Source: Spirochaetales bacterium (GTDB taxonomy: Bacteria; Spirochaetota; Spirochaetia; JABMQR01). From it: DNA of 64,000 nucleotides. The stretch covers positions 58,032 through 122,031 of the forward strand of contig JAGYPA010000003.1 in NCBI GenBank assembly GCA_018399255.1, read 5' to 3'. The position numbers and the translations under genes are program-made. This document shows, one piece after another, positions 3,262 to 25,851 of this stretch. The notes beneath the pieces are model-generated. The model was not told the origin of the DNA. It made no database searches and worked only from the letters and a program-made list of their open reading frames with translations. Within the stretch, counting starts at the first letter, position 1. Each line of letters starts with the position of its first letter.

Positions 3262-3357
3262 GCACCGATGGGTTGGGGCTTTCATAATTCAAGGATTTTG
3301 AAAGATCCTCAGATACAGGTGCAGCTGTCACGACGGGTATTTTACAGGAGGGGCCAA

Positions 3358-5010: not shown

Positions 5011-5041
5011 TATAACCGTTTGGTTATAGCGGTCTTTTTTT
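5011..5041 (+). terminator. Weak candidate intrinsic terminator after the sulfatase operon
   Basis: AT-rich 7-bp stem (tataacc/ggttata) followed by a T7 run. Confidence 0.3.
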
Positions 5042-5176
5042 ACACCTTTTCGTTTTATACCATTCTGTGAGCAACTGTTATGTACATAACGGAGTCATGA
5101 CTGCTGAACGTACCATGCTTCAATAGTGAAAGGTACTGTACAAAATGCGCAAACAATCAAGGAGATTATTTTTTTG

Positions 5177-5205
5177 TTGACAAACGGGAAAATGAAAAGT
5201 ACAAT
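5177..5205 (+). promoter_or_regulatory. Sigma70-like promoter (TTGACA-17-TACAAT) for the ABC transporter operon
   Basis: TTGACA at 5177-5182 and TACAAT at 5200-5205 with 17-nt spacing, about 170 nt upstream of the substrate-binding protein start. Confidence 0.45.
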
Positions 5206-5374
5206 TTTAATTGTTATAATATTAGTACAATAAATAATTGATCGGTTATACAGATAGTGATTGGTTATACAGGGATTAAAGTTAAAATGAGGAAGATTTT
5301 CTTTCTCTGAAAAAGTTTCGGTATATTGCTTGCTGTCGGAAGACAGCAGTAAGAAAAAACTATGGAGGTTTGTA

Positions 5375-6727: not shown

Positions 6728-6842
6728 CAGAGTAACGGAATAAGAACGAAAACTTTCTAGTGTTTGAGTTATTGAGGGCCCCTTGAAATAGATGTACTGT
6801 TGAAAGGGGCCGTTTTTAAAACTTTTTCTTCAGGAGGGGAAA

Positions 6843-7736: not shown

Positions 7737-7748
7737 TGGAGTGAGACG

Positions 7749-8618: not shown

Positions 8619-8664
8619 TTGCTGCGTAAATAAATCAAGGTGAAATAAATCAAGGTGAAAATAT

Positions 8665-10921: not shown

Positions 10922-10983
10922 AGAGAGACCTCCTGAATAAAATTCCTGAATAAAGTGCAAATTTTGCTTTACACTCTCCCTGC

Positions 10984-11007: not shown

Positions 11008-11071
11008 TATAAGATAAAAATACAGCCTTTTTTCGGCTGGAGCCTGAAATTCATGGAGGGAGATACATACT

Positions 11072-12030
11072 ATGAATGGTTTTGACTTTTCACCGGCGCC
11101 CTGGATTCCTTTTCGCGACAAGGCGGTTCTGGATCGGGTACGAAAGCTTTCGGGGGAAGCGCTGACGCAGCATCCTAACAAGAACTTCCGGATTCAGATC
11201 AGCAAAAATCCCGGGCTTTTTTCTTTGCCCATCTTTTCAGCAAGATCCAGGAATCCGACCGGGAGAACAAGCCGTTTGTCGCCATCCTCGGCAATCCCGC
11301 CCCGGGAACCTACGAGCCCCTGGCAGACCTGATAAACTACGCGGGAGTAAACTGCCGCAACTTCTACCCTTTACCATGGACGAATGGGCCGATGAGAACG
11401 GAAACATAGCTCCGACAACCTACAAGGCGGGTTTTCCTACTCGTTTCTAAAATACCTGATTAACCGGATCCGGCCGGAGCTCCGGCCGCCGGAGAAGAAC
11501 GTCTTCTATCCCACAAACGAGAACATACAGGACTACTCGAAGCTGATAGCGAGAAGGGGAACGGCGGGGCCGATACCCTCTATTCCGGTCCTGGGTGGGC
11601 CGGTCATATTGCTTTATCGATCCGTGCCCGAGCTGATTCCCGATTACCGGGAAGGCGGGGAGTACCTGATCAAGGATCTGGACGATCCCTACTTTCAGCA
11701 GCTCGGCGCAGGTGCTGACGATCCATCCGCTGACAATTGTGCAGAATTCGCTGCACGGTGTTTTCGGACAGAGCGGGATCTTGCGCAGGTGCCGCCGAAA
11801 GCGGCGACCATCGGCCCGCTGGATGTGCTCAATGCGAAGGAACGGATCGAGACTCACTGGATAACGACAGGAGGCCAGTTCAGCATGGCGCCGGATGACC
11901 AGCCGGCTGATAACCCACGGGCCGGTAACTCCCTACATGCCGGGATCGATTCTGCAGCTGCTCGATACCACTGTGCTTATCAGTGAAAGCATTGCAGAAC
12001 CGATAGAGTGCATGGAGACCGTCGGCTACT
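11072..12030 (+). pseudogene. NagB-like (glucosamine-6-P deaminase / sugar-phosphate isomerase family) pseudogene, copy 1
   Basis: The N-terminus MNGFDFSPAPWIPFRDKAVLDRVRKL is a homolog of the intact paralog at 20436-21371. The reading frame breaks several times, with fragments in three frames (11072-11332, 11609-11986, and others). Confidence 0.7.
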
Positions 12031-12074
12031 GAGAAGTATGTATTGAACAGTATTAAACGAGGAGAGATGCTCTA

Positions 12075-13037
12075 TGAATGGTTTTGACTTTTCACCGGCG
12101 CCCTGGATTCCTTTTCGCGATAAGGCAGTTCTGGATCGGGTGCGGAAGCTTTCGGGGAAGCACTGACGCAGCACCCCAACAAGAACTTCCGGATTCAGAT
12201 CAGCAAAAACCCCGGCCTCTTTAAATTTGCCCACCTTTTCAGCAAGATCCAGGAATCCGACCGGGAGAACAAGCCGTTTGTCGCCATCCTCGGCAATCCC
12301 GCCCCGGGAACCTACGAGCCCCTGGCAGACCTGATTAACTACGCGGGAGTCAACTGCCGGAACTTCTATCCTTTTACCATGGACGAATGGGCCGATGAGA
12401 ACGGAACATAGCTCCGACAACCTACAAGGCGGGTTTTTCCTACTCTTTTCTCAAATACCTGATTAACCGGATCCGGCCTGAGCTCCGGCCTCCGGAGAAG
12501 AACGTCTTCTACCCCACAAACGAGAATATACAAGACTACTCGAAGCTGATTGCGGAAAAGGGAAACGGCGGGGCCGATACCCTCTATTCCGGTCCTGGGT
12601 GGGCTGGTCATATCGCCTTTATTGATCCGTGTCCCGAGCTGATTCCCGATTACCGGGAAGGCGGGGAGTACCTGATCAAGGATCTGGACGATCCCTTCTT
12701 TCAGCAGCCGGCGCAGGTGCTGACGATCCATCCGCTGACGATTGTGCAGAATTCGCTGCACGGAGTTTTCGGACAGAGCGGGGATCTGGCGCAGGTGCCG
12801 AAAGCGGCGACTATCGGCCCGCTGGATGTGCTCAATGCGAAGGAACGGATCGAGACTCACGGGATAACGACAGGAGGCCAGTTCAGCAGCTGGCAGCGGA
12901 TGACCAGCCGGCTGATAACCCACGGGCCGGTAACTCCCTACATGCCGGGATCGATTCTGCAGCTGCTCGATACCACTGTGCTTATCAGCGAAAGCATTGC
13001 AGAACCGATAGAGTGCATGGAGACCGTCGGCTACTGA
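12075..13037 (+). pseudogene. NagB-like pseudogene, copy 2 (tandem duplicate of copy 1)
   Basis: Near-identical N-terminus. A frameshift follows the SGE codons (ggggaagcactgacg versus gggggaagcgctgacg in copy 1). The C-terminal segment 12717-13037 is in frame with the paralog (TLAQNSLHGVFGQSGDLAQVP). Confidence 0.7.
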
Positions 13038-13090
13038 CCGTCGGCTGCTGAAAACTATATTTTTTGAATAGAAAGAAATGAGAAGAGGGT

Positions 13091-14161
13091 ATGACTATGA
13101 ACAGCAGAGAGCGCGTTCTTGCCGCCGCCGAACGAAGAAAGACTGACAAGGTTCCCACATCTTTGCGCTGTACGCCGGAAGTGCTGCAGGCTCTGATTTC
13201 CCGGCTGGGAGTAACTACCAAGCAGGAAGTCTACGATGCACTGGACATCGATCTGCGATGGATTTATCTCCCCTTTATCGGACCTGAAGAGCGCTCTGCA
13301 GCAGTTATGGGCAGCGAGGGGGTCGACTTCTGGGGCTGCCGCAATACGAAAATGGGAAATAAGTTCAATACCTACTACGAGATTACCGGGCATCCGCTTG
13401 CTGAAGCGGAAACCGTTGAGGATGTGGAGAACTACGATTGGCCGAGCCTGGATTGGTGGGATTATGACGCAATACCGAAAATTATCGAGGCCGAGCTGCA
13501 GAAGGACAGGCGGGCAATCATGTTCTTTGCCGGTGGAGCCTTTGAAACCCCCTGGTATATTCGCGGTTTTGAGCAGTTTCTTATGGATCTGTATCTTAAT
13601 CCGGACATTGTTACTGCCATCTGCAGCAAAGTTGAAGAGTACTATCGGCTTCGGGCCCTTCGGGTTCTGGAGGCAGCCGACGGAATGATAGATATTGTGG
13701 GTTCTGGCGGGGACCTCGGCGGGGAGACGGCTCTGCTGCTTGATCCGAACAAATGGCGGGAACTGATCAAGCCCTACACAGCCAGTCTGATCCAGACCTT
13801 CAAGCAGATGGGACTGAAGACCTTTTACCATTCCGATGGCGCCATAACCTCAGTAATCGAGGATTTTATTGAAATCGGCCTCGACATTCTCGATCCGATT
13901 CAAGTGGGGGCGGCTGGTATGACTCCGGAAGAACTGTCACCGAAATTTGGAAGCAGGCTGACGTTTCACGGGGCAATTGATGAAGTGCACCTGCTGCCGC
14001 ATGCCGCCCCGGAAGAAGTGTATCGGGAAACCCGGCGAGTTATATCCATTCTTGGACAGAACCATGGATATATTGTCTCTCCAACCCATCAGCTGCAGGG
14101 AGATACATCAGTTGATAATGTACTGGCAATTTATCAGGCGGTAAACGACTTTCGCTGGTAG
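13091..14161 (+). CDS. Uroporphyrinogen decarboxylase (URO-D) family protein, MtaA/MtbA/CmuA-like methyltransferase family
   Basis: URO-D-family N-terminus (RERVLAAAERRKTDKVP) and 356 aa length. Confidence 0.6.
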   Translation: MTMNSRERVLAAAERRKTDKVPTSLRCTPEVLQALISRLGVTTKQEVYDALDIDLRWIYLPFIGPEERSAAVMGSEGVDFWGCRNTKMGNKFNTYYEITGHPLAEAETVEDVENYDWPSLDWWDYDAIPKIIEAELQKDRRAIMFFAGGAFETPWYIRGFEQFLMDLYLNPDIVTAICSKVEEYYRLRALRVLEAADGMIDIVGSGGDLGGETALLLDPNKWRELIKPYTASLIQTFKQMGLKTFYHSDGAITSVIEDFIEIGLDILDPIQVGAAGMTPEELSPKFGSRLTFHGAIDEVHLLPHAAPEEVYRETRRVISILGQNHGYIVSPTHQLQGDTSVDNVLAIYQAVNDFRW

Positions 14162-15351
14162 ACGGTTTTTCCATCAATAATAGTCATATGTACATTGATA
14201 TCTTCATCAAAAACTGCAAGATCAGCGTCCAGGCCAGCCCGGATTGACCCCTTGTGATGTTCCAAAGCAAGGAATTTTGCAGGATTATACGTTGCTGCAG
14301 TTACGGCTGCCGGGAGTGATATCCCGGTATGCCGCATGAAATTACGGATCGCATCATTCATGGACATGAGGGAACCGGCCAGGCTTCCATTTTCAAGCCG
14401 GACCACATCCTCTCCTTCTCTCAGGACAATTTTCAGACCGTCTTTCATGGTATACCTTCCAGGAGGGCTCCCTGCGGCATCACGGGAATCTGAAATAAGG
14501 ATTATTTTTTCAGCGCCTTTACAGCGAAGGAGAATGGTAAGCAGGACCGGCGGTACGTGGATACCGTTTTTGTCGGCAATAACTTCTGCGTACAGCTCAT
14601 CACAAACCAGAAGCTCTTCTTCTATTCCCCAGGCCTTAACTCCCCCCTCGTATGGAACCGGATCGGCAAAACAGTCAAATATATGATCAATATGGGATAT
14701 ACCCAGATTGAGGGCCCGCTCCAACCGCGGAGGAGATGCGCGGCAGTACCCGAGAGCAACGTGAACATCATGTTTCCGCAGCGTGCGAACCATATTTTCA
14801 TATCCTGAAATCTCTGATGATACGGTCATGATTTTTAGATTGCCTTCAGCGGCAGAAAGTATCCGGCCGACATTTTCAGCGGTGGGTATAATTGCATGCT
14901 CCTCACTCTGGGCACCACGGTCGGGATTTATGAACGGCCCCTCCGAATTGATGCCGACAACCTGCGCCCCATGATCCGCTTTCTGTTCCCGCATCCAGCG
15001 ACTGATGAGACGGCAGCCGTTAATGAGAGATTCCAGGTCCATATTCCAGAAGGTGGGAAGAAAGGCTGTAGTTCCATGTCTGGCGAGGTAGCCAGCCATC
15101 TGATCGTACGGTCCGAAGGCTGCATCGATGCCGTTTGCACCGTGGGTGTGAATGTCAATGAATCCGGGAGAGATGTACATTCGCTGCACATCGATCACGT
15201 TATAAAAATCTGAAGTTTCAGGATGCTGCAGATAGTCTTCTTGAGCTGCAATTTTTTCTATCTTACCCTCCCTGATATACAGTACCTTGTCATGAAGTAC
15301 GGTATGAGGAGTCAAAATTAATCCATTGATAAGAATGATGTTTTTATTCAT
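14134..15351 (-). CDS. NagA-like amidohydrolase (N-acetylglucosamine-6-phosphate deacetylase family)
   Basis: GFIDIHTHGANG metal-binding motif and amidohydrolase fold. The start moves to MNKNIILINGLIL. Confidence 0.7.
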   Translation of the reverse strand: MNKNIILINGLILTPHTVLHDKVLYIREGKIEKIAAQEDYLQHPETSDFYNVIDVQRMYISPGFIDIHTHGANGIDAAFGPYDQMAGYLARHGTTAFLPTFWNMDLESLINGCRLISRWMREQKADHGAQVVGINSEGPFINPDRGAQSEEHAIIPTAENVGRILSAAEGNLKIMTVSSEISGYENMVRTLRKHDVHVALGYCRASPPRLERALNLGISHIDHIFDCFADPVPYEGGVKAWGIEEELLVCDELYAEVIADKNGIHVPPVLLTILLRCKGAEKIILISDSRDAAGSPPGRYTMKDGLKIVLREGEDVVRLENGSLAGSLMSMNDAIRNFMRHTGISLPAAVTAATYNPAKFLALEHHKGSIRAGLDADLAVFDEDINVHMTIIDGKTVYQRKSFTA

Positions 15352-15430
15352 ATGCTTTTTAAAAATGTATACATAAATAATATAACAAAGTATACTATAA
15401 AACAATTCTTATGTAAACTAAAGATGAGAA

Positions 15431-16786
15431 ATGCAAACATTGCACAATTTAAAGACAGCAAAAGATGTTCGACTTATCTACGGGTTTCATCTTTTCAATA
15501 ATATAGCCATAACCGTAGTTGCCAATTTTCTCTTTCTCGATCAGCTTTTTTTGCGCATGCAGCTGAATCTGTCCCATATCGGACTGATTAAAGGGATCAG
15601 CTATCTTATTCCCATGACCGTCAATCTGCTGCTTTCACCAGCAATCCAGCGGCTGAACCGGGACCGGGAAATAGTGGCTGCTGCCTACCTGTTCCGGGTT
15701 TCACTCCCGCTGCTGCTGCTGGTGTTTCCGCAGATCGGGCTGGAAAAAAATCAGCTGGCCATGGCAGTCGGTCTCGCTCTGGTAATAATCCACATCTTTC
15801 CCATAGTTGCCAACAATTCAATTCATGTACTGATAAGTGCTTCTATAGACGTCAAGTCTCTGGGGAAGCATCTCGGGGGACTGCAGCTCATCTGGACTCT
15901 GCCGGGATTTCTGCTGGCTATACCATTGAGCCGCTATATGGATACCTTTGCCCTGCTGCCTGACAGTGAATTTTACCGCGGGCTGTTTTACTGTATGGCT
16001 GGTACCGGGGTGTTTCAGATTGCCGCTAGTGGAATAATTCTCAAAGTACCCCGACCTGACGTCGGGGAAAATGCTTCAGGTGAACATATCAACTGGTTTT
16101 CTCGTATCATTTCTCCGTTCAGGGATAAAAACTTCAGGCTGGTGCTCCGGGTAATACTGCTGACTACCTTTTTTTCCTCTATGGTCAGGGATTTTATCAA
16201 CCCCTATTTTCTCACAGTTCTGAACATGAATATGGGAACGATCTCCTATTTCAGTGCCGGGGTTTCGATACTTTCCATTGTCTCCTTTCCTCTTTGGGGG
16301 CGTGCTATGGATCGGATCGGGGGGAGAAATTCTTATCGCATAGCTCTGGCCGGCCTTACCATCGGCATAGCGATGCTGCTGGGGGACGGGCTGCTGTTTC
16401 TCATGCTGTTTGCCTTTCTGGCCTGGGATGGGTCGAGAGGGGTGTTCGGGTCGGGAATTCAGACCATACATCAGTATCTTGCCATGGTAAACACGCCGAA
16501 AGGAAAAAGGAACATCTATTTTGCTTCGGCAACCTTTGCCACAGGCGTCGGGCTGTTTCTCGGGTCATCCATCGGTGGAATTGTGCTTGATACCCTTATA
16601 GCCCGGCTGCCTTCCGGTGAGCCTGCGGCAGCCTTTCGCATCTACTTTATCGTGGCCATGGCAGGACTCGGCAGCGTCATGCTGTTTGTGCATAAATTGC
16701 CGCACGATCGGAAGCATATTCCCGGACGGGATATGTGGCTGTATGTCTACCGGTTCAGCAGATCTCTGTTTGGCCGATTCCGGTGA
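15431..16786 (+). CDS. MFS transporter
   Basis: About 12 predicted hydrophobic segments and 451 aa. Confidence 0.65.
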   Translation: MQTLHNLKTAKDVRLIYGFHLFNNIAITVVANFLFLDQLFLRMQLNLSHIGLIKGISYLIPMTVNLLLSPAIQRLNRDREIVAAAYLFRVSLPLLLLVFPQIGLEKNQLAMAVGLALVIIHIFPIVANNSIHVLISASIDVKSLGKHLGGLQLIWTLPGFLLAIPLSRYMDTFALLPDSEFYRGLFYCMAGTGVFQIAASGIILKVPRPDVGENASGEHINWFSRIISPFRDKNFRLVLRVILLTTFFSSMVRDFINPYFLTVLNMNMGTISYFSAGVSILSIVSFPLWGRAMDRIGGRNSYRIALAGLTIGIAMLLGDGLLFLMLFAFLAWDGSRGVFGSGIQTIHQYLAMVNTPKGKRNIYFASATFATGVGLFLGSSIGGIVLDTLIARLPSGEPAAAFRIYFIVAMAGLGSVMLFVHKLPHDRKHIPGRDMWLYVYRFSRSLFGRFR

Positions 16787-16814
16787 TTTGTTGTTTACAG
16801 AAAGCCGATAAAGC

Positions 16815-16843
16815 GTATACAATATAAATATAAAATTGTATAC
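16815..16843. promoter_or_regulatory. 9-bp inverted repeat GTATACAAT-N11-ATTGTATAC upstream of the MttB-like gene
   Basis: Exact inverted repeat 30 bp upstream of the GGAGG ribosome-binding site. Confidence 0.4.
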
Positions 16844-16873
16844 GAATGGTGATGGCCATGTGAGGAGGAATGG

Positions 16874-18283
16874 ATGGAGAAAAAAAGAATATCCGACAGC
16901 CAGGTGGATCAGGTCCGGGAAGGAACCGAGTATCTTCTGGAGAAAGTGGGCTTTACAGTTCAGCATGATGGGATCCTGAAAATAGCGAAAAATGCGGGTG
17001 CTGCCGTTGACGAAAGCAATTACCGGATACGATTACCCCGGAAGTTCCTGCGGGAACTGCTCGCTCAGGCTCCGAAGCAGTATGTCATAGCCGGTCTCGA
17101 CGGCCGTGAGCATGTCCGGGGAGGAACAAAGCGCGGGTTCTCTGCTATTGTAACCGATCCCTGGGTAATTGATTACAATACCGGGCAGCCCCGGAGACCG
17201 AACCTGGAAGATGTGCGCAAGCATACCATTATCGGACAGAAGCTCGAGCGGGTGGTGCAGATGAGCAGAATGGATTTTCCGGTTACCGATACAGATGATG
17301 CATCCTCAAGTCTTCGTGCTCTTGAAACTCACTTGCTTCATCAGAACAAGCACATCATGTTCATGCCGGCTTCCCTCGAAAGCTATCACGATTTCAAGAC
17401 CATTGCCCGGATTCTTGCCGGCGGACGGGATCCGGGGAAGAGCCATATTCTGAGCGTTGCAGCAGCCGTTGTAAGCCCTTTTGTTGTCGGAAACTGGAAT
17501 GCGGAAATGCTCATTGATGCCTGTGAAAGCGGCTTTCTGATCAATACCACGATCTGTCCTATGGCCGGCACAACGGCACCGTACAGTAAAGCGGCTGTTC
17601 TTTTGCAAGGCAATGCGGAGAACATTTTTATGACAGCCTTGACACAGATGATCAAACCCGGCACACCGATTGCCTACGGGTTTGGAGCGTCTGTTACCGA
17701 TATGCGGGCAGGGCATGACAGGTACTATATGCTCGATACTGCTCTCTGGACCGATGCGATCTGGCGTATGGCTGCTTCCTATAAGCTTCCTACCTCAGCA
17801 GCGTGCGGGGGAGGGATGACGTTTCGTTATGATCCCCAGAATGGAGCGGAAGGAATGGCCTTTATGCAGGCAGCTTGCGCAACCGGTGCTGACCTGCTTT
17901 CCGGGATCGGTTCTTACTATAACGCCGTCGGTATGTCAGCAGAGATGATGCTTATGCAGAATGCGTGGTTTGAAGCAGTTGAGCATCTGAACAGAGGAAT
18001 TGAGTTTGACAGTTTCAGTCAGGCTCTGGAAAGTCTCGAGGCTGCAGGACCTGGCGGAAATTTCCTCACCGATGATCTTACCATAGAAAACCTGCGGAGC
18101 AGCGAGTTTTTTAACCATGACCTTTTTGATTTTTCGGGCGGAAATTATCAGGGTACGTCGATGCTGCAGAGAGCTCACGAAAAAATAGACGAAATGACGG
18201 AGGGGTTCGAGTCTCCGCTTCCCGGATCGGTGCAGGAAGAGCTGCGAAGGCATTTTCATCACCTCTATCAGAGTTTGAACTGA
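16874..18283 (+). CDS. MttB-superfamily methyltransferase (non-pyrrolysine member of the trimethylamine methyltransferase family, MtgB-like)
   Basis: N-terminal pattern EGTEYLLEKVGFTVQHDGILKIAKNAGAAVDESNYRIRLPRKFLRELLAQAPKQYVIAGLDG matches the MttB-family N-terminus. It is about 470 aa with no internal amber codon. GAGGAGG lies upstream. Confidence 0.6.
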   Translation: MEKKRISDSQVDQVREGTEYLLEKVGFTVQHDGILKIAKNAGAAVDESNYRIRLPRKFLRELLAQAPKQYVIAGLDGREHVRGGTKRGFSAIVTDPWVIDYNTGQPRRPNLEDVRKHTIIGQKLERVVQMSRMDFPVTDTDDASSSLRALETHLLHQNKHIMFMPASLESYHDFKTIARILAGGRDPGKSHILSVAAAVVSPFVVGNWNAEMLIDACESGFLINTTICPMAGTTAPYSKAAVLLQGNAENIFMTALTQMIKPGTPIAYGFGASVTDMRAGHDRYYMLDTALWTDAIWRMAASYKLPTSAACGGGMTFRYDPQNGAEGMAFMQAACATGADLLSGIGSYYNAVGMSAEMMLMQNAWFEAVEHLNRGIEFDSFSQALESLEAAGPGGNFLTDDLTIENLRSSEFFNHDLFDFSGGNYQGTSMLQRAHEKIDEMTEGFESPLPGSVQEELRRHFHHLYQSLN

Positions 18284-18383
18284 TGAGGCAGATCTTGCTT
18301 GACAATGGGAAAGAGGTAACGTAAAATTAAATGGTTATAATATTCTTATATTATAATTTTTCTTTATAATAGAAGGAGTTGAC

Positions 18384-19370
18384 ATGCTGCCGAAATTTAC
18401 TGAGTTTGATAAAAAAATCTGGGAAAAGGAACTGGAAGACTTTGTCCCAGAATCTGTGTTTGATGCGCACAGCCACATCTGGTCCGAAGCTTTCAGGAAG
18501 AACAATACCCAGAACACCTCTGCCTTACGGCTGGAGGTAGCTCTCGAGGACCTTCACCGCTGGTCACTTACACTGTTTCCCGGACGGAATATGGGGTACA
18601 TTCCCTTGCCGACTCCGCTGAAGGATATAGATTATTCCGGTCATAATGACTGGACTGCAGCGGAAGCGCACAGCGCGAAGTCTGCCGGGATTCCCCTTCC
18701 GGTTATTCCCACTATGCTGGTAGTCCCTGGGATGGACAAAGAGGAGATCAGCCTGCGGGCAGAGCGGGACGGAGTGAAAGTGCTCAAACCCTATCGGGTA
18801 TACGCAGACGATCCAAAAAACGGGGTGATTACCGACTTCTTTCCAGAATCCTTTATGGAAGCAGCCGATGAGCATCATCTGGCAGTAACGCTTCATCTTT
18901 CCAAAGAGACGGGTCCGGCTGATGAGCAGAACCTGAAGGATCTTGAACGATTCACTCGAAAGTACCCCGGTATTCGCTGGATTCTCGCCCATTGTGCCCG
19001 GGCTTTCAATTCGGTTCACCTTGAGGATTCCGTGCATCGTCTCGCAAAGATGGAGAATGTGTTTGTGGATACTTCTGCCGTGAATGACACCTACTCCCAC
19101 TATCTGCTTTTCAAATACTTCGATCGGGAAAAAATCCTCTTCGGAACGGACAACGTATCTGCGGGTTCAGCCCGCGGGAAATATATCACCTTCGGTTACG
19201 GCTGGGAAGGCTATTTCGGCAAGGAATCTCTTGAGCACTGCGACAGCCGCTGTACATTCATCGTGTATGAGCAGCTGCGGTGTCAGAAGCAGGCGGCTGA
19301 AATGGTCGGTCTTACGAAAGGTGAAATCGAGGATCTGTTTTATCGGAACAGCCTGAAGTTTTTTTCCTGA
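18384..19370 (+). CDS. Amidohydrolase-2 family (TIM-barrel metal-dependent hydrolase)
   Basis: DAHSHIW N-terminal metal-binding motif typical of amidohydrolase-2, and a HCARAF region. Confidence 0.6.
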   Translation: MLPKFTEFDKKIWEKELEDFVPESVFDAHSHIWSEAFRKNNTQNTSALRLEVALEDLHRWSLTLFPGRNMGYIPLPTPLKDIDYSGHNDWTAAEAHSAKSAGIPLPVIPTMLVVPGMDKEEISLRAERDGVKVLKPYRVYADDPKNGVITDFFPESFMEAADEHHLAVTLHLSKETGPADEQNLKDLERFTRKYPGIRWILAHCARAFNSVHLEDSVHRLAKMENVFVDTSAVNDTYSHYLLFKYFDREKILFGTDNVSAGSARGKYITFGYGWEGYFGKESLEHCDSRCTFIVYEQLRCQKQAAEMVGLTKGEIEDLFYRNSLKFFS

Positions 19371-19430
19371 TAAGCAAACAGCTTTCAGAAAGCTTGAAAA
19401 GGGCATGCCGATGCTGATGCATGAAAAAGG

Positions 19431-20390
19431 ATGGAAAAATTGTCTGTAACAGAAAGCAATAGTCGGAGTATATCCCGGCTCGGGCTGGGAACCGTTCAGT
19501 TCGGGCTGAATTACGGTATAAACAATACCGGAGGGCAGGTTTCGTATCAGGAAGTCTGCAGCATTCTAGAGACAGCAGCAGAAGAAGGCATCAACTTTCT
19601 CGATACATCGCGAAATTACGGAACCAGTGAGACAGTTCTGGGAAAAGCGATGAAGGAAACGGGGACAGACACCCGCTTTACCGTCTCAACGAAGCTCGAT
19701 CTGGACCGGAATTTCAAGGAGCTGAGCGATAAGCAGCTCTCCAAAGCTGCAGAAGAGTCGCTGGAAAAGAGCCTTGAAGCATTGAAGCTCGAGCAGATAC
19801 CGCTTTACCTTCTTCACAGCTATGATTATTACAGCTATCGGGACAATCTGATCTGGCATACTGCCCGGGAGCAGCAGGAAAAGGGCCGTATCGGAAAGCT
19901 TGGCATTTCCATAGGGCAGGGCCCGCATGAAGCCCTCTCCGCCCTCGGGGATACCGAGGTGCAGGCTCTCCAGATACCCTATAACCTGTTCGATCAGCGC
20001 TGGCGGCAGTCCGGTTTTCTTGCTGCGGCAAATAAAGCCGACCTGATTCTGATATCCCGCAGCGCCTATCTGCAGGGACTGCTGCTGATGGATATCGAGA
20101 AGGCTGTTCAGCGGGTGCCGCTCTCTCGGCCCTATAAAGAGATTCTCAATAATCTTGCGAAGACGTGGGATTTGAGCCTGACGGAACTTGTTTTCCGGTA
20201 TGTGATGGATACCAGAGAGATAACAACGACCATTGTAGGGATTGACAGTCTTCAGCAGCTTAAGGAAAATTGCAGGCTGTATAAGCGTCCAGCCCTGAAT
20301 AAAGCCAGGATACGGGAAATTGAAGAGCTCTTCAGCGAAGTTCCTGTCGAGGTGGTAAATCCATCATTCTGGACAACTGTTTTCAAATAA
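19431..20390 (+). CDS. Aldo/keto reductase
   Basis: LGLGTVQFG, DTSRNYG and SETVLGKA aldo/keto reductase motifs. Confidence 0.8.
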   Translation: MEKLSVTESNSRSISRLGLGTVQFGLNYGINNTGGQVSYQEVCSILETAAEEGINFLDTSRNYGTSETVLGKAMKETGTDTRFTVSTKLDLDRNFKELSDKQLSKAAEESLEKSLEALKLEQIPLYLLHSYDYYSYRDNLIWHTAREQQEKGRIGKLGISIGQGPHEALSALGDTEVQALQIPYNLFDQRWRQSGFLAAANKADLILISRSAYLQGLLLMDIEKAVQRVPLSRPYKEILNNLAKTWDLSLTELVFRYVMDTREITTTIVGIDSLQQLKENCRLYKRPALNKARIREIEELFSEVPVEVVNPSFWTTVFK

Positions 20391-20435
20391 CCAGTGATTT
20401 AAAAGTTTCGGGATAAGATAAAAGGAGACGGCAGA

Positions 20436-21371
20436 ATGAATGAATTTACCTTTAAACCCTCTCAATGGGTTCCGTTCAAGGATAGGGAAGTCATTGAGAG
20501 GGTCAGAAAAATCAGGCGCGAAGATATCGATAAGCATAACAATCCTGATTTCCGCATCAGGGTGCTCCCCCGGGAGAAAATATCTCATATCTTTGTAACC
20601 GATGTTTTTTCACGGATAAAACGTTCAGATGATCACGATGAGCCGGTAGTGCTTCTTTTCCCCAATCCCAATCCCGACTACTGGAAGGTTGCGCACCTGA
20701 TAAACACGCTGCAGGTCAGCTGCAGGAATGTCTGGGCTTTTGCGCTGGATGAATACGCAGACGAAGAGGGCAATATTGCCCCTGCCGAATGGAAATTCGG
20801 GTTCATGCGGGCTATGAATGAGAATTTTTACAACGCCATCGATGTGCACCTCCGTCCGCCGCGGGAGCAGGTTATCGGGCCGACCAACGAAAACTACAGG
20901 GACTACAGTAAGATGATTGCCGATCTGGGGGGAGCTGATGCCTGCTACACGGGCCCCGGCTGGACCGGCCACCTGGCTTTTGTCGAGCCGGACGCACCCG
21001 AGTTTAAAGCCGAAAGTCTGGAAGAATGGATGGGTATGGGAGCCCGGATAGTCACCTTGAGTCCGTTTACCCTCGCCCAGAATTCACTTTACGGAGGATT
21101 CGGCATGAGCGGGGATTTGAGTGCCGTTCCACCCAAAGGCTTTACGATAGGTCCGCGGGATGTTGTCGAGGCGAAATACCGGATGGATATGAGCGCCATA
21201 ACCGTTCATGGAACTGCCACCAGCTGGCAGCGTCTCATGGCCCGACTGGTTCTGCACGGACCGGTAACCCCGCTGCTGCCGACATCCATCCACCAGCTCT
21301 TGAGAACAGACAGCTATATATCGGAAGAAAATGCGATGAATATCGAGCCTGATTGGGACAAGGGGTATTAA
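20436..21371 (+). CDS. NagB-like glucosamine-6-phosphate deaminase / sugar-phosphate isomerase family protein (intact paralog of the pseudogenes)
   Basis: ALDEYADEEG and GPGWTGHLAFVEPD (compare the GIGxxGHIAFNEP motif of NagB/Pgl). GGAG ribosome-binding site. Confidence 0.6.
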   Translation: MNEFTFKPSQWVPFKDREVIERVRKIRREDIDKHNNPDFRIRVLPREKISHIFVTDVFSRIKRSDDHDEPVVLLFPNPNPDYWKVAHLINTLQVSCRNVWAFALDEYADEEGNIAPAEWKFGFMRAMNENFYNAIDVHLRPPREQVIGPTNENYRDYSKMIADLGGADACYTGPGWTGHLAFVEPDAPEFKAESLEEWMGMGARIVTLSPFTLAQNSLYGGFGMSGDLSAVPPKGFTIGPRDVVEAKYRMDMSAITVHGTATSWQRLMARLVLHGPVTPLLPTSIHQLLRTDSYISEENAMNIEPDWDKGY

Positions 21372-21372
21372 C

Positions 21373-22479
21373 ATGACGCCGAGGGAGAGAGTTGAAGCAG
21401 TCTATGCCGGTGAAGTGCCGGACCAGGTCCCCTTGCTGCTCGATCTCAGTCACTACTATAAAAGCACCTATAAAAAATTCTTCGATCTTTCCGGGTACAA
21501 AGGCGTGGACCAGGAACTGGTGGATCTGCACAAGAAAATCGGGGCCGTCTGCTATGTGGAGATGGGCCGGTTTTACGATCTGGCAGTAACCGACAGGCGT
21601 ATTGAAACGAGAGCGGAAACCCGGGACGGTGTTTTTTTTACCTATATCAGCACCCCGGAGGGCAGTCTCCATGAGGAGAGGACCTTCAGTGCAGAGAGTT
21701 ATTCCTACAACATCCGTAAGCATCTGCTGGAGAGCGTCGAAGATTTCCCGGCAGTTATCAGTCTGATGGAGCATATGGAGTGCATACCACGGTGGGAGCG
21801 GTATCATGAGTGGAACGACGCCCTTGGGGACGTGGGCTATCCCTACTGCGGTCTGCCCTACTCGGGGCTGGGGTATCTTATCTCACGCAATTTCGGGGTG
21901 GAAAAGACGATCTTTGCTGCCATGGATTATCCTGATGAGGTGCGGCTGCTTGTGGATTCAGTAAACCGTCGGAACCTGGAGATTCTCGATACCATAATCG
22001 ACGGCCCTTTTTCAACCCTTTTTATCAGCGACAACTATGACAGCAATGTGCAGACGAAAGAGCTGTTTGATACCTACTCGCGGGGATATTATACCGAGGT
22101 GGCAGATCGGCTGCATGCAAAGGGGAAGTATCTGGCAGTCCATGTGGATGGGGAGATGCGGGGAGCGCTGCGCTGGATGGATGAGTGCGGAGTGGACTGT
22201 GTCGATGCGGCTACCCCGGCGCCCATGTTCGCGCTGACTCCGAAAGCTGCCCGGGCGGAGGCGGGGAAGAATATGATCCTTTCCGGGGGTATACCGGCGA
22301 CAGTATTCGGTTCTCAGGGAACCGATGCAGAGTTTGAGGAGTCGGTGAAGGCCTGGCTGGAAACCAGGGTTGAATCTCCCCGGCTGTTTATGGCTGCAGG
22401 AGATCAGGTTCCTACCGATGCACCGCTGCACAGAATTGAGATGCTGCCAAAGCTCGTGGAAGCCTGCGGGAAATATTGA
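21373..22479 (+). CDS. URO-D family protein (second MtaA/CmuA-like paralog)
   Basis: N-terminus TPRERVEAVYAGEVPDQVPL. Translationally coupled to the upstream gene with a 1-nt gap. Confidence 0.55.
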   Translation: MTPRERVEAVYAGEVPDQVPLLLDLSHYYKSTYKKFFDLSGYKGVDQELVDLHKKIGAVCYVEMGRFYDLAVTDRRIETRAETRDGVFFTYISTPEGSLHEERTFSAESYSYNIRKHLLESVEDFPAVISLMEHMECIPRWERYHEWNDALGDVGYPYCGLPYSGLGYLISRNFGVEKTIFAAMDYPDEVRLLVDSVNRRNLEILDTIIDGPFSTLFISDNYDSNVQTKELFDTYSRGYYTEVADRLHAKGKYLAVHVDGEMRGALRWMDECGVDCVDAATPAPMFALTPKAARAEAGKNMILSGGIPATVFGSQGTDAEFEESVKAWLETRVESPRLFMAAGDQVPTDAPLHRIEMLPKLVEACGKY

Positions 22480-22501
22480 ACCGAACGGGGAAGATTCAGC
22501 T

Positions 22502-23662
22502 ATGAAAGTTATTGTAAACTGCCGGATTATTACCGAGAAGCAGATTATTCCGGATGCTGTGCTTATTATTGACGGCAGACTTATCCGGGAATTCGGACCT
22601 GCTGAGCTTCTTGCCCCGCGTCTTTCAGAGCTTGCAGACTGCGAAGTACTAGATGCCGGAGGAGACTTTCTCGGACCTGGCTTCATTGATCTTCATTGTC
22701 ACGGAGGCGGCGGGGTATGGTGGCATGAGGAACCCGAAGTTTTTGCCGAAACCCATTTGCGGCACGGCAGTACCGGCCTGCTGGCGACCTCCGGTATGTA
22801 TAAGGATTTGGATGAGCTCTGCCGCGGGCTCGATCGTATCCGTGAAGGTATGCAAAGCGGCAGCTGTCCCAATATTCTCGGTGTGCAGATGGAGGGGCCT
22901 TATAAAAACCCGAAATACGGCGCCCAGCCGGAACTTTCCATTCGCATTAATGAATTAGAGTATCGAAAAATCCTTGAGCATGGAAGTGATATCATCAAAA
23001 TCTGGACAGTTGCTCCTGAGCTTGAGGGAATTGATCCGTTTATTGAGACCGTCAGCGCCCTGGGGCATATTCTTTCCATAGGCCATTCGGAAGCTTCCCC
23101 TGAGGAGATTCTCAAAAACCTCAGTAACCGGCTTATTCTCGCCTGTCACGCTTTCGATGCAACCGGAACCAGTCCGAAGCTGAAAGGCGAAGCGGGAACC
23201 CGCAGCGTCAGTGTGGATGATATGGTACTTCTTGAGGACCGAATATATGCCGAGGTGATTCCCGATGCAGCCGGCGTTCATGTCCGCCCGCAGCTTCTGC
23301 AGCTTATTCTGAAAGCGAAAGGGGTGGATAAGGTTGTTGTAATAACCGATGGAACAACTGGCTCCGGCATAAAAGGGGTGCTCCCCGGAGAATCGGATCT
23401 CAATTTCAATGAAAACGGCCTATGCGGTTCGAATCTGACTATGGATCGGGCAGCCAGGAATATGATGATGCATACCGGTGCCTCACTGCCGGAAATTTTT
23501 TTGATGGCTTCACTTAACCCCGCCCGTGTGCTGAATGTCGATCATGCATACGGCAGCATCAGGCCATGGAAGATTGCCAATCTGGTGCTGGTCGATTCTG
23601 CACTGAATCTGAAAAAAGTAATTTTTCAAGGTGAAGTGATTCAGGATTCTCCAGGAATGTAA
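22502..23662 (+). CDS. NagA-like amidohydrolase (second paralog)
   Basis: GFIDLHCHGGGG motif. The start moves to MKVIVNCRII. The ORF track extends the frame upstream into the preceding gene. Confidence 0.65.
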   Translation: MKVIVNCRIITEKQIIPDAVLIIDGRLIREFGPAELLAPRLSELADCEVLDAGGDFLGPGFIDLHCHGGGGVWWHEEPEVFAETHLRHGSTGLLATSGMYKDLDELCRGLDRIREGMQSGSCPNILGVQMEGPYKNPKYGAQPELSIRINELEYRKILEHGSDIIKIWTVAPELEGIDPFIETVSALGHILSIGHSEASPEEILKNLSNRLILACHAFDATGTSPKLKGEAGTRSVSVDDMVLLEDRIYAEVIPDAAGVHVRPQLLQLILKAKGVDKVVVITDGTTGSGIKGVLPGESDLNFNENGLCGSNLTMDRAARNMMMHTGASLPEIFLMASLNPARVLNVDHAYGSIRPWKIANLVLVDSALNLKKVIFQGEVIQDSPGM

Positions 23663-23795
23663 TACGCGATAAACGACAGCCTCCAAAACTGCCTCTCGCA
23701 CCACACCACAATACATAGTTTCTGAGAAGAAGAACTGGACAAAGTGATATCCCTCTGTTATAGTTTCTTACAAGAAGTAAGTAATAGGAGCCGGC

Positions 23796-24956
23796 ATGAA
23801 GTTATTTGAATACCAGGCGAAAGCTATTTTTCAGAAAGAGGGCATTCCGATTCCTTCCGGATACCTGGCAGCCCCGTTCGAAGCGGCAGGATTTTGTGAG
23901 CAAATCGGTTTTCCCTGTGTCCTGAAATCTCAGGTTCTGCAGGGGGGGAGGGGGAAGGCCGGACTTATCCAGGTGGTGAAAAATTCAGCAGAGGCCGGAA
24001 CAAGGATTGCCGAACTCGAAGCCCGGGGGGTGAAAACAATTCTGGTCGAACAGGCTGTGCCAATTGCACGGGAGCTCTACCTCTCGGTTACCGTTGATCC
24101 TTTGCGGGCAAGCGCCCTTATAATCGCCAGTGGAGAGGGAGGGGTAGAGATAGAGGATCTTGCGGAAACAGCTCCCGAAAAAATCATCCGGGAAGAGGTT
24201 GATATAACCGCCGGTCTCCAGACCTATCAGGCAGTTGATATCGCCTACAGAATGACTGATAACCCGGATGAAGCCAGGCAGGCTGCCAAAATTATTCAGG
24301 CTCTCTTCAAAGTATTCTCGAAGTATGATGCCGAACTGGCCGAGATTAACCCGCTCTTTGTGACCGAATCCGGTGAACTGCTGGCCGGAGACGGGAAGCT
24401 GGTTATCGATGAGAACTCCATGGGACGACAGCCGGGCTTTGAGCGGACCCGGGATCACTACGACAGCGATATGGAATATGAGGCCGCGCAGGAGGGTATA
24501 CCGTATCTCCAGTTTGATGGAGAGATCAGCCTTATGTGTGCAGGCGCAGGACTGACCACCACCGTCTTTGACCTTATCCACTATGAGGGCGGAACCGTAG
24601 CGAACTATCTCGAATTCGGCGGCCCGAATTACCGGAAAGCAGTGCAGGCTATGGAGCTCTGTCTGCGCAATGATTCAAAAGTAATTCTCATAGTTACTTT
24701 CGGAACCATTGCCCGGGCGGATGTCATGGCGGAGGGGATTGTTGACGCAATACAAAGATTGCGCCCAAATCGACCAATTGTTGCATGTATAAGAGGAACT
24801 AACGAGGAAGAGGCAAAAAAAATACTTGAAGCGGCTGGAATTGAACCGCTGTACGATACCGAAGAAGCGGTCCGGAAGGCGGTAGCCTTGTGCGGGCAGG
24901 GTTCCGCAATTTCCGGTGCAGATGATCCTGACGGCAGAGACGGAGGTGAAGTGTGA
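23796..24956 (+). CDS. sucC: Succinate--CoA ligase (ADP-forming) beta subunit-like, ATP-grasp
   Basis: MKLFEYQAKAIFQKEGIP N-terminus is classic SucC. The QGGRGKAG phosphate loop is present. Confidence 0.75.
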   Translation: MKLFEYQAKAIFQKEGIPIPSGYLAAPFEAAGFCEQIGFPCVLKSQVLQGGRGKAGLIQVVKNSAEAGTRIAELEARGVKTILVEQAVPIARELYLSVTVDPLRASALIIASGEGGVEIEDLAETAPEKIIREEVDITAGLQTYQAVDIAYRMTDNPDEARQAAKIIQALFKVFSKYDAELAEINPLFVTESGELLAGDGKLVIDENSMGRQPGFERTRDHYDSDMEYEAAQEGIPYLQFDGEISLMCAGAGLTTTVFDLIHYEGGTVANYLEFGGPNYRKAVQAMELCLRNDSKVILIVTFGTIARADVMAEGIVDAIQRLRPNRPIVACIRGTNEEEAKKILEAAGIEPLYDTEEAVRKAVALCGQGSAISGADDPDGRDGGEV

Positions 24957-25849
24957 GTATTTTTATAACCCGGGAGACCCGGGTGCTGGTTCAGGGCATA
25001 ACTGGAAAAGAGGGAAGTTTCTGGACCGGCCATATGATAGATATGGGTACCAATGTTGCTGCTGGAGTAACACCGGGGAAAGAGGGTCAGTCTGTTTTCG
25101 GCCGACCGGTCTATCACACGGTTCGCCGAGCTGTCGCCGAACATGAAGCCGGCTCACCGCCATGCTCTTTGTTCCACCGCGTTTTACCAGGATGCGGTTT
25201 TGAAGCCCTGGACAGCGGCATTAAGAAGATTGTCACTATTGCCGACGGTATTCCGCTCCACGAAATGGTACAGATACGGGCTGCAGCCAAAGTGGAGGGT
25301 GCTCTGGTTGTCGGCGGCAATACATCCGGCTGCATAAGTCCGGGAGAGGCTATGCTTGGTATGTTTCCCTACTGGATCGATCGGGTCTACAGGAAGGGAA
25401 CAATCGGGATTATGACTCGCAGCGGATCGCTGACTAACGAAGTTACGGCCATGGTAGTGCAGGCCGGCTTCGGGGTGAGTACGCTGATGGGAATAGGGGG
25501 AGATCCGGTTCCAGGAACCCGCTTTGCCGAGATGCTGCCCTTTTATGAGGCAGATCCGGAGACCGAAGCTGTAGTGATTATCGGTGAGCTGGGCGGAACT
25601 ATGGAAGAAGAGGTTGCCGAAGCGGTAGAGGCCGGCATTTTTACCAAACCTCTGGCAGCCTTTCTCGGAGGACGGACGGCCCCGAAAGGGAAGCGGATGG
25701 GCCATGCAGGAGCCATAGTATCGGGAGGACGCGGCACGGTGGAAGGGAAGGTGAAGGCCCTTGAATCTGTAGGAGCTGCTGTTGCAGACCGGCCTTCTAA
25801 AGTGGGTCTGTTTCTAAGGAATTTGCTTGATAGAGGTTTAACGTACTGA
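24953..25849 (+). CDS. sucD: Succinate--CoA ligase alpha subunit-like
   Basis: TRVLVQGITGKEGSF CoA-binding N-terminus and the MGHAGA phosphohistidine region. There is a 4-bp overlap with sucC. Confidence 0.75.
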   Translation: MSIFITRETRVLVQGITGKEGSFWTGHMIDMGTNVAAGVTPGKEGQSVFGRPVYHTVRRAVAEHEAGSPPCSLFHRVLPGCGFEALDSGIKKIVTIADGIPLHEMVQIRAAAKVEGALVVGGNTSGCISPGEAMLGMFPYWIDRVYRKGTIGIMTRSGSLTNEVTAMVVQAGFGVSTLMGIGGDPVPGTRFAEMLPFYEADPETEAVVIIGELGGTMEEEVAEAVEAGIFTKPLAAFLGGRTAPKGKRMGHAGAIVSGGRGTVEGKVKALESVGAAVADRPSKVGLFLRNLLDRGLTY

Positions 25850-25851
25850 AA

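Follow-up and report, generated by a model that had tools for sequence, protein, structure and literature searches.

The 64-kb stretch of DNA analysed here (hereafter, the window), part of contig JAGYPA010000003.1 of a Spirochaetales bacterium, carries at 16874–18283 a gene for a member of the MttB superfamily of methyltransferases that lacks pyrrolysine. Table 1 lists the features around it, as assigned to the listed open reading frames (ORFs) with Pfam, NCBIfam equivalog cut-offs and sequence searches of the PDB. Two plus-strand operons were recognised. The upstream one spans 142–9981, and the one containing the MttB-like gene spans 15431–27327, with tightly packed genes and short gaps, ending against the convergent gene of a ROK-family protein that is likely a regulator; the creatininase-family gene and the broken NagB-like copies separate the two operons. 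An earlier note on this DNA had described a block of about 10 kb, all on one strand, in which the MttB-like gene was accompanied by two URO-D-family genes, two NagA-like genes, an intact NagB-like gene and genes for an Amidohydro_2-family protein, an aldo/keto reductase (AKR) and a transporter of the major facilitator superfamily (MFS). This gene content was confirmed, with Pfam returning PF01208 for both URO-D-family genes and PF04909, PF00248 and MFS_1 for the last three. One NagA gene, however, lies on the minus strand, and the functional block is larger, extending from approximately 142 to 27327, because an aminotransferase that is a conserved partner of the MttB-like gene is encoded at 8665–9981. 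The MttB-like protein is not an oddity of its source genome but a member of a separate MttB clade that is widespread and has no linked corrinoid gene; the module of this clade is conserved and uncharacterised. That the region represents a conserved catabolic module found in multiple phyla, with the MttB-fold clade and MtaA-like barrels as recurrent members, is well supported, and in our judgement the module is very probably of a sugar-type catabolic nature and includes a non-canonical MttB clade as a member.

Table 1. Features of the window in and around the functional block (positions count from the first letter of the window; the last column gives the domain or model matches and the position in the operon).
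Feature	Position	Strand	Evidence and remarks
DHDPS/NanA-family aldolase	142–1029	+	Pfam PF00701, 80.8 bits; first gene of the upstream operon
512-amino-acid ORF without family, membership of the module uncertain	968–2506	+	
Hexapeptide-repeat acyltransferase	2536–3261	+	Pfam PF00132, 86.8 bits
Sulfatase with N-sulfoglucosamine-sulfohydrolase-type C-terminal domain	3268–4902	+	PF00884, 164 bits; PF16347, 65 bits
ABC sugar-type transporter (substrate-binding protein 5330–6727; permeases 6843–7736 and 7749–8618)	5330–8618	+	Pfam SBP_bac_1, BPD_transp_1
HemL-like class-III aminotransferase	8665–9981	+	Pfam PF00202, 124 bits
Creatininase-family amidohydrolase	10082–10960	−	Pfam PF02633, 163 bits
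Two tandem frameshifted NagB-like paralogues of ~1 kb	11059–13040	+	Repeats and tblastn
URO-D-family protein 1 (URO-D1), predicted MtaA-like TIM barrel	13091–14161	+	Pfam PF01208, 83 bits
NagA	14134–15354 (ORF as listed to 15405)	−	Pfam Amidohydro_1; TIGR00221, 239.1 bits
MFS transporter	15431–16786	+	Pfam MFS_1, MFS_2; first gene of the operon 15431–27327
Non-pyrrolysine MttB-superfamily protein	16874–18283	+	PF06253, 189.6 bits
Amidohydro_2-family protein (lactonase/decarboxylase/hydratase superfamily)	18384–19370	+	Pfam PF04909, 55.8 bits
AKR	19431–20390	+	Pfam PF00248, 139 bits
Distant NagB-like protein	20436–21371	+	No Pfam match; TIGR00502, 53.9 bits
URO-D-family protein 2 (URO-D2), predicted second MtaA-like subfamily	21373–22479	+	Pfam PF01208, 49 bits
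NagA-like amidohydrolase	22502–23662 (ORF as listed from 22370, TTG)	+	Amidohydro_1; TIGR00221, 185.5 bits
Succinyl-CoA-synthetase-like (SucCD-like) pair (beta 23796–24956; alpha 24953–25849)	23796–25849	+	ATP-grasp_2 and Ligase_CoA (beta); CoA_binding and Ligase_CoA (alpha)
DASS-family (Na+/dicarboxylate or sulfate) transporter	25852–27327	+	PF00939, 178 bits; PF03600, 122 bits; last gene of the operon
ROK-family protein with N-terminal MarR-like helix-turn-helix	27244–28629	−	Pfam ROK, 116 bits; weak MarR match

The earlier note had read 16874–18283 as a non-pyrrolysine MttB-family gene, and the profile search it proposed bore this out: the product matched PF06253 with 189.6 bits (E 7e-56, profile positions 34–490 of 500), and the gene has no in-frame UAG, being one uninterrupted ORF. 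Against the trimethylamine methyltransferase model TIGR02369, it reached 197.9 bits with a cut-off of 525 and is thus not MttB sensu stricto; its identity with MtgB, the glycine-betaine enzyme of Desulfitobacterium hafniense (2QNE, 9YCE) that works with MtgC and MtgA and likewise has no pyrrolysine, was 27.8% (phmmer, 132 bits). An AlphaFold2 model of the protein (predicted local distance difference test [pLDDT] score 89, predicted template modelling score 0.88) had the TIM barrel with C-terminal helical extension of the MttB/MtgB type. In Foldseek it gave template modelling (TM) scores of 0.87 with MtgB (9YCE/2QNE), 0.86 with MttB (7XCL) and 0.84 with the Sinorhizobium meliloti homologue 4YYC, whose structure contains an unknown ligand, and this superposition makes membership of the superfamily and fold secure. 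A D-x-Q-x-G-x-E stretch past the seventh strand was common to the window protein and MtgB.

A protein database search with 16874–18283 returned hundreds of proteins with 49–71% identity from Kiritimatiellota, Lentisphaerota, Latescibacterota, Omnitrophota, Hydrogenedentota, Planctomycetota, Chloroflexota, Verrucomicrobiota and metagenome-assembled genomes (MAGs) of Clostridia. Scanning one genome per species yielded 78 loci, the closest being that of a Spirochaetaceae MAG (L001, 71% identity). A cluster of 100% identical proteins was found only on a 4.1-kb Logan contig, and the look-up of the exact sequence returned no contig. The clade as a whole (43–71% identity to the window protein) covered at least 10 phyla, with Chloroflexota, Planctomycetota, Verrucomicrobiota/Kiritimatiellota, Lentisphaerota, Latescibacterota, Hydrogenedentota, Omnitrophota, Armatimonadota, Bacillota and Spirochaetota represented. 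Its members carry the source annotation trimethylamine-corrinoid methyltransferase, which probably does not describe their function.

This annotation, superfamily membership and the precedent of unlinked partner genes described below would all fit an ordinary quaternary-amine methyltransferase of the MtgB, MtpB or MtcB kind, with partners encoded elsewhere in the genome and a position in a sugar island that has no functional meaning. The low score against the MttB equivalog model and the low identity with MtgB argue against such an enzyme, as do the residues that bind the substrate in MtgB. There, glycine betaine is held by Y97 and F356 through cation–pi contacts and by R312 and H348 at the carboxylate (PMC13080624). 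In a sequence alignment, which compares residues and not structurally superposed pockets, Y97 corresponded to V93 of the window protein (valine throughout the clade), R312 to S308 (S, A, V, T or I across the clade), H348 to a deletion in the clade and F356 to Y349 (Y or H across the clade). As aligned, the clade appears to be without three of the four MtgB ligands. The arginine is conserved in MtcB, MtpB, MthB and MtyB, the characterised enzymes for carboxylate-bearing quaternary amines (PMC13080624), and its absence here therefore argues against a betaine-type substrate. The clade has a set of invariant polar residues of its own, which includes D95, R107, D113, E151, K159, H160, E249, C311 and R318.

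No PF02310, PF02607, PF00809 or PF02007 domain was found among the approximately 59 window ORFs scanned. As a probe for B12-binding proteins we used the cobalamin-binding segment of Escherichia coli MetH, which retrieved MetH (254 bits), MtaC (50), MttC (46) and MtmC (32) from the PDB. With this probe, six-frame translations of the window (stretches of at least 50 amino acids) gave no match at E ≤ 10, and neither did 83 related loci (ca. 1.18 Mb). The statement that the 64 kb hold no B12-binding or MtrH-like gene was thus upheld. As a positive control, the MtgB sequence was rebuilt from its PDB alignment, and 80 metagenome loci encoding MtgB relatives (50–100% identity) were collected. A B12-binding ORF was present in 40 of these 80 loci and in 17 of the 23 that were at least 15 kb long, usually following mtgB at a distance of about 100 nt, compared with none of 79 loci of the window's clade. 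For long loci alone (0/39 versus 17/23), Fisher's test gave a nominal p of 1e-10, which is an illustration rather than a true probability, since the loci are not phylogenetically independent and were drawn from different collections.

The lack of linkage has a precedent. Eubacterium limosum encodes the corrinoid protein MtqC, shared among MtpB, MtcB, MtyB and MthB, away from the MttB-family genes mtpB, mtcB and mtyB; MtqA and RamQ are likewise encoded apart from these genes (PMC8604678). A missing corrinoid gene nearby is therefore not by itself non-canonical. With this qualification, the earlier view of the context as non-canonical was upheld, and it extends to the whole clade. The E. limosum enzymes keep the carboxylate-binding arginine (PMC13080624) and come from a methylotrophic acetogen whose paralogues number in the dozens; the clade of the window, in contrast, spans many phyla and occurs in conserved operons with an aminotransferase, an Amidohydro_2-family protein and sugar-pathway genes. 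Another uncharacterised MttB clade, reported from Ace Lake MAGs, is linked to split MetH-like modules that include a corrinoid protein (PMC9324843), and we rejected it as the clade of the window for this reason. Marine MtgB works with MtgC and MtgD (PMC12478193).

To describe the neighbourhood of the clade, ORFs of the loci were labelled by phmmer against the window proteins, by all-against-all clustering and by Pfam searches with cluster representatives, and partners were counted among 70 non-redundant loci. The commonest partner was the HemL-like aminotransferase (orthologues of 8665–9981, up to 559 bits), present in 26 of the 70 loci (26–27 among 70–79 loci). It was followed by Amidohydro_2 proteins (19 loci), BNR_2 propellers without signal peptide and HpcH aldolases (15 each), URO-D-like proteins (14; 12 of 35 among loci of at least 15 kb), AKRs (13; range 13–16), GFO/IDH/MocA-family oxidoreductases (13), short-chain dehydrogenases/reductases (SDR; 11), DHDPS-family proteins (9) and NagB-like proteins (4). 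The cluster of Amidohydro_2 and aminotransferase ORFs lay at a median distance of 74 bp from the MttB-like gene, with all 33 ORFs on the same strand. In 10 loci, the Amidohydro_2 domain was fused N-terminally to the aminotransferase in a protein of ~770 amino acids encoded next to the MttB-like gene (L005, L007, L015, L018, L019, L022, L033, L056, L057 and L060; e.g., L019:13564-15912). Among characterised enzymes, none of this domain composition is known to us. A locus of a Chloroflexia member (L044) came close to the gene set of the window; it encodes a NagB-like protein, a substrate-binding protein, two permeases (orthologous to those of the window, 240–261 bits), an AKR, an Amidohydro_2 protein, the MttB-like protein, the aminotransferase and URO-D1.

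Among the 80 control loci of MtgB relatives, none encoded the aminotransferase, an Amidohydro_2 protein or an AKR, and only two encoded a URO-D-like protein; the partner sets of the two groups are mutually exclusive. The proposed comparison of gene neighbourhoods thus revealed an association that is common and syntenic across phyla, although not as a cluster of known function. Our literature search on the MttB superfamily, on URO-D proteins in polysaccharide loci and on corrinoid-dependent sugar demethylation returned no description of this cluster, in agreement with the earlier view that the arrangement matches no characterised MttB-family locus. The same-strand adjacency to aminotransferase, Amidohydro_2 and sugar genes in at least 10 phyla, absent from MtgB loci, together with the lost carboxylate ligands, makes an ordinary betaine-type enzyme with distant partners very unlikely. 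Many of the host lineages are, to our knowledge, not known as methylotrophs, which points in the same direction.

The two URO-D-family proteins of the window are not HemE, since they scored only 18.6 (URO-D1) and 15.2 bits (URO-D2) against TIGR01464 (cut-off 302.95); they also remained below the cut-offs of the NCBIfam MtaA/CmuA models (31–35 bits versus 235–400). Single-sequence searches of the PDB with URO-D1 and URO-D2 gave no match and a profile was needed. The profile of 17 URO-D-like neighbours matched MtaA (4AY7) with 86 bits, UROD with 53 bits and the chloromethane methyltransferase CdmB (9RUI) with 37 bits. The AlphaFold2 model of URO-D1 (pLDDT 94.5) gave TM scores of 0.73–0.76 with MtaA (4AY7), the closest solved structure, ca. 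0.65 with UROD and ca. 0.48 with MetE. As judged from profile and predicted structure, the URO-D-family proteins are closer to MtaA than to HemE. MttB and MtaA/MtbA are the first (MT1) and second (MT2) methyltransferase families of methylamine:coenzyme M methyl transfer in methanogens. An MT2-like partner is therefore arguably present in the window; the earlier note was right that no MtrH-like gene is in view but missed that URO-D is the methanogen MT2 family. The co-occurrence recalls the MttB–MttC–MtbA system of Methanosarcina, in which an MttB barrel (MT1) is combined with a URO-D/MtaA barrel (MT2). In contrast to that system, the window has neither a pyrrolysine codon nor an MttC-type protein, its clade is hosted by non-methanogens in a context of sugar catabolism, and the URO-D-like proteins partly replace the cysteine ligands of MtaA with aspartate or histidine. 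CdmB and the type 1 mlp clusters likewise use URO-D-fold barrels as subunits that bind the methyl donor or acceptor, but they co-encode corrinoid proteins (PMC13222342, PMC10418091), whereas the window does not.

URO-D1 orthologues, 60–98% identical across phyla, have invariant H247, S248, G250, H333 and Asp338. The zinc site of MtaA consists of H-x-C...C, and its H-I-C-G motif corresponds in the URO-D-like alignment to the invariant histidine followed by a position toggling between aspartate and cysteine: of 24 orthologues (61–98% identical), 13 have Asp and 11 have Cys at position 249, two past H247. The window protein has Asp at this first cysteine position and thus departs from the MtaA site; the second zinc cysteine is replaced by an invariant His in URO-D1 and by Asp in URO-D2, whose motif is H-[VI]-D-G. 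This residue pattern suggests a metal site in the URO-D-like proteins, as an Asp/Cys toggle would be expected for a metal ligand. Next to MttB-clade genes, clear orthologues of both subfamilies are encoded in Chloroflexota, Planctomycetota and other phyla; those of URO-D2 (261–513 bits) lie in L033, L015, L046, L067 and L049. Of these loci, L015 belongs to the 2.15-Mb contig CAVOXA010000010.1 and L067 to chromosome OW818698.1. URO-D1 orthologues with 64–66% identity also occurred in two loci that contain neither an MttB gene nor a corrinoid protein gene (L084:10001-11065 and L086:10001-11065). The first of these encodes BNR_2, DAO, SDR, Amidohydro_1, DeoC, Aminotran_3 and ceramidase-like proteins behind a TonB-dependent receptor, and the second encodes BNR_2, ceramidase-like, AKR, GFO, SDR, HpcH, DHDPS, GH42 and GH2 proteins. 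Because URO-D1 orthologues occupy such sugar loci without an MttB gene, the URO-D-like enzyme acts in glycan catabolism in its own right. A strict, obligate MT1–MT2 pair of MttB-like and URO-D-like proteins was rejected on these grounds and because URO-D-like genes accompany the clade in only 14 of the 70 loci.

The sugar context in the window comprises the NagA that clears its equivalog cut-off and the genes for the NagB-like protein, the ROK-family protein, the sulfatase and the ABC sugar-type transporter. The minus-strand NagA (14134–15405 as listed) exceeded the TIGR00221 cut-off (239.1 versus 225.65 bits), and its likely start is the ATG at 15354 rather than 15405. The second copy (22370–23662 as listed) remained below it with 185.5 bits; its start is likely the ATG at 22502 rather than 22370, being preceded by GGGGAAG and placed 23 nt past the stop of the preceding gene. 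Thus, both of the supposed NagA-like genes encode Amidohydro_1 proteins, and by the cut-off one is a true NagA. The product of 20436–21371, described in the earlier note as an intact NagB-like protein, is only a distant relative: it matched the nagB model TIGR00502 with E 1.5e-14 (53.9 bits, cut-off 236.9) and NagB chains in the PDB at E 4e-6. The NagB motifs MDEY and GHIAFNEP are retained as LDEY and GHLAFVEP, and a threonine aligns with the aspartate of NagB PDGH. The catalytic residues of NagB are Asp72, Asp141, His143 and Glu148 (E. coli numbering). These comparisons indicate a protein with the fold of NagB (glucosamine-6-phosphate deaminase/isomerase) but not its equivalog. Orthologues were found in four related loci.

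The word intact in the earlier note implied broken copies as well, and two such NagB-like copies are present at 11059–13040. They form direct repeats of 91–99% identity at a spacing of ~1003 nt, match the product of 20436–21371 in tblastn with 29–54% amino acid identity in shifting frames, and differ from each other by 63 mismatches and 15 single-base indels. The copies could be decaying duplicates or reflect an assembly problem in the repeat; two points that bear on the idea of an assembly artefact are that ORFs elsewhere in the window are intact and that the single-base indels differ between the copies.

The analysis establishes the families and folds, the layout of the operons, the conserved association of the genes and the consistent lack of a linked corrinoid gene; from these we infer a substrate class, an order of steps and, above all, a methyl-transfer chemistry. 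The reading we favour, although with somewhat less than even confidence, is that the region of about 142–27327 is a widespread module that degrades a sugar, amino sugar or sugar acid bearing decorations, with demethylating barrels and an unlinked cobamide carrier. The substrate suggested in the earlier note, an N-methylated or otherwise decorated amino sugar or a related osmolyte, is plausible. The substrate would enter through the ABC and MFS transporters and then lose its decorations, sulfate through the sulfatase and N-acyl groups through the two NagA-type amidohydrolases, while the HemL-like aminotransferase and the NagB-like isomerase/deaminase would take off amino groups. The carbon skeleton would be processed by the Amidohydro_2 protein (hydrolysis of a lactone or related bond), the AKR and the DHDPS-type aldolase, and the product would pass into central metabolism, possibly through the SucCD-like ligase. 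The MttB-like protein and the two MtaA-like URO-D barrels would act as accessory tailoring enzymes of this pathway; in the mechanism we prefer, they would strip N- or O-methyl groups from the substrate, with a shared corrinoid protein encoded elsewhere in the genome or with free cobamide. Characterised non-haem members of the MttB and URO-D/MtaA families are components of methyl transfer. Demethylation is favoured for this reason, because the fold and some motifs of the superfamily are kept, and because of the unlinked genes of E. limosum.

Several observations weigh against this reading. Neither the window nor 1.1 Mb of flanking DNA from 79 related loci showed a corrinoid protein, a pterin-binding MT2 or a RamA-type activase. 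In characterised corrinoid methyltransferase systems, a few methylotrophic acetogens aside, such genes usually lie together, as they do in 17 of the 23 long MtgB loci. Rfam matched nothing in the window and one tRNA only in seven full loci, so there is no cobalamin riboswitch in any of them. The apparent loss of three of the four MtgB ligands and the URO-D1 orthologues in loci without an MttB gene have been described above. In 36 of the 70 loci, neither the aminotransferase nor an Amidohydro_2, URO-D-like or BNR_2 gene lay within 10 kb, and in the closest relative (L001) the MttB-like gene sits beside genes for an amylase, PTS EIIC and sugar-alcohol metabolism; the gene association is therefore recurrent, not universal. 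Homologues of the BNR_2, HpcH, SDR and GFO partners were not found in the window.

Some of the same observations would be explained if the barrels had lost corrinoid-dependent methyl transfer. The MttB-like protein, and probably the URO-D-like proteins, would then serve a non-phosphorylative pathway for sugar acids or amino sugars, in a step that needs either no cofactor or a metal; an example would be the dehydratase, isomerase, epimerase or decarboxylase step for which the module has no other enzyme. The complete absence of B12-binding ORFs from clade loci compared with MtgB loci and the mutually exclusive partner sets are consistent with this alternative, as are the replaced betaine-binding residues, including the arginine of the carboxylate-betaine enzymes, and the many invariant polar residues peculiar to the clade. 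Furthermore, the recurrent GFO, SDR and AKR oxidoreductases, Amidohydro_2 proteins and HpcH and DHDPS aldolases would supply the dehydrogenase, lactonase and aldolase steps of a pathway that also has a PLP enzyme, and no known sugar-acid dehydratase family was found among the recurrent neighbours. Aspartate and histidine in place of the MtaA thiolate ligands, and URO-D-like genes in loci without an MttB gene, fit as well. However, this argument is one from absence of evidence, a corrinoid protein might be encoded beyond the window, and the fold and the D-x-Q-x-G-x-E stretch are kept. The co-occurrence of MT1-type and MT2-type proteins would be hard to explain if neither transferred methyl groups, and we know of no member of either family with such chemistry, apart from decarboxylation by HemE. 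We regard a loss of methyl transfer as the main rival, somewhat less likely than demethylation. A broader statement encompassing both chemistries is that the MttB-fold clade, often together with MtaA-like barrels, acts on carbohydrates without a dedicated corrinoid protein, which would make it either the first case of corrinoid-type demethylation of sugars or amino sugars (through free cobamide or a shared carrier) or the first non-methyl-transfer chemistry of the MttB fold, in a new pathway built around the Amidohydro_2–aminotransferase fusion; we consider novelty of this kind a tentative prospect, doubtful rather than probable.

A more specific version of the favoured demethylating module, overlapping with it, is that the substrate is a sialic-acid-like nonulosonic or ulosonic acid (for example, legionaminic or pseudaminic acid, Kdn or Kdo) or its di-N-acetylated hexose product, with the barrels handling methyl or rare substituents. 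The window shares with nag/nan clusters a NagA, a NagA-like and a NagB-fold protein, an aldolase of the DHDPS family (to which NanA belongs), a ROK-family protein and ABC and MFS transporters. In addition, BNR_2 ORFs adjoin the MttB-like gene in the 15 loci counted above; those flanking it (e.g., L013:1624-2751, L033:8836-9951 and L035:8836-9960) share the N-terminus M-x-I-L-D-R-G-x-V-F, and these sialidase-fold proteins are probably cytoplasmic enzymes rather than secreted sialidases. NeuB is encoded in one locus (L002), and GFO-family oxidoreductases are recurrent. Unlike in nag/nan clusters, however, the NagB-like, second NagA-like and DHDPS-family proteins of the window are far from equivalogs, and MttB-like, URO-D-like, Amidohydro_2, HemL-like aminotransferase, AKR and SucCD-like genes are added. 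A search of the window for equivalogs of BNR_2, NanE or NanK found none, the DHDPS and ROK families are both broad, and gene contexts differ widely between the clade loci. Such a substrate would be an attractive specialisation, although we give it a low probability.

Degradation of gamma-butyrobetaine or gamma-aminobutyrate, which might be suspected from the combination of MttB, class-III aminotransferase, SucCD and DASS genes, was rejected as a main explanation. The aminotransferase is HemL-like and not GabT-like: its top PDB matches were glutamate-1-semialdehyde (GSA) aminomutases and aminoglycoside C-6' aminotransferases, and it scored 244 bits against the NCBIfam GSA-aminomutase model, below the cut-off of 486. 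The SucCD and DASS genes are also not conserved partners. The SucCD-like pair and the DASS gene (23796–27327) had no counterpart across the related loci and thus look like a lineage-specific addition, perhaps to activate an acid product with CoA or to transport it.

Most MttB-superfamily genes are without pyrrolysine, and what these genes do is acknowledged to be unsettled (PMC8604678). In environmental genomics, a non-pyrrolysine MttB gene is often taken as a sign of glycine-betaine or methylamine use. One study, for example, equated all of its non-pyrrolysine mttB homologues with mtgB (PMC6081815). For the clade of the window, an MtgB-type reading is probably wrong; the clade is abundant in polysaccharide-degrading phyla and has neither the betaine-binding residues nor a linked corrinoid partner, and it therefore probably does something else. 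If the barrels demethylate sugars, they would open a route for methylated carbohydrates that does not depend on oxygen. Our literature search found a single system for carbohydrate demethylation, the cytochrome P450 of marine Bacteroidetes that demethylates 6-O-methyl-D-galactose (PMC6292453), which would then be a functional analogue from an unrelated family with an oxygen-dependent mechanism. If the barrels do not demethylate, the MttB fold would have a second, so far unrecognised chemistry. The conserved trio of MttB-like protein, Amidohydro_2 protein and HemL-like aminotransferase is a concrete set of proteins to express and test.

Among the other genes of the region, the sulfatase had homologues in three or four related loci. 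The Amidohydro_2 protein of the window had no NCBIfam match and no sequence-level match in a single-sequence search of the PDB. The creatininase-family protein matched the NCBIfam models for MftE, creatininase and IolN weakly, each below its cut-off, and a homologue is encoded directly after the MttB-like gene in L008. The ORF at 968–2506, which lies inside the upstream operon and overlaps the end of the DHDPS-family gene by ~60 nt, gave no Pfam match at E ≤ 0.1 and no homologue across the 83 related loci. A scan of the window for promoters and terminators returned terminator-like sites at or below the shuffled expectation.

Downstream of the module, the window contains a trp operon (49843–56361) with two fused genes, one for a glutamine amidotransferase and anthranilate phosphoribosyltransferase (51294–52895) and one for indole-3-glycerol-phosphate synthase and phosphoribosylanthranilate isomerase (52864–54330). 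The same trp genes were found in the closest relative (L001:211-3561), directly upstream of the amylase and MttB-like genes; the neighbourhood of the MttB-like gene has thus been rearranged between the window and this relative, since the trp genes adjoin it there. A long ORF at 46944–48278 (444 amino acids) had no Pfam match even at E ≤ 0.1. An FGGY-kinase ORF within 44441–46900 (GTG at 44996, 634 amino acids) begins with a 140-amino-acid stretch without a domain match, which overlaps the minus-strand gene of an AraC-family regulator (44441–45322); the start of the kinase is probably near 45400.

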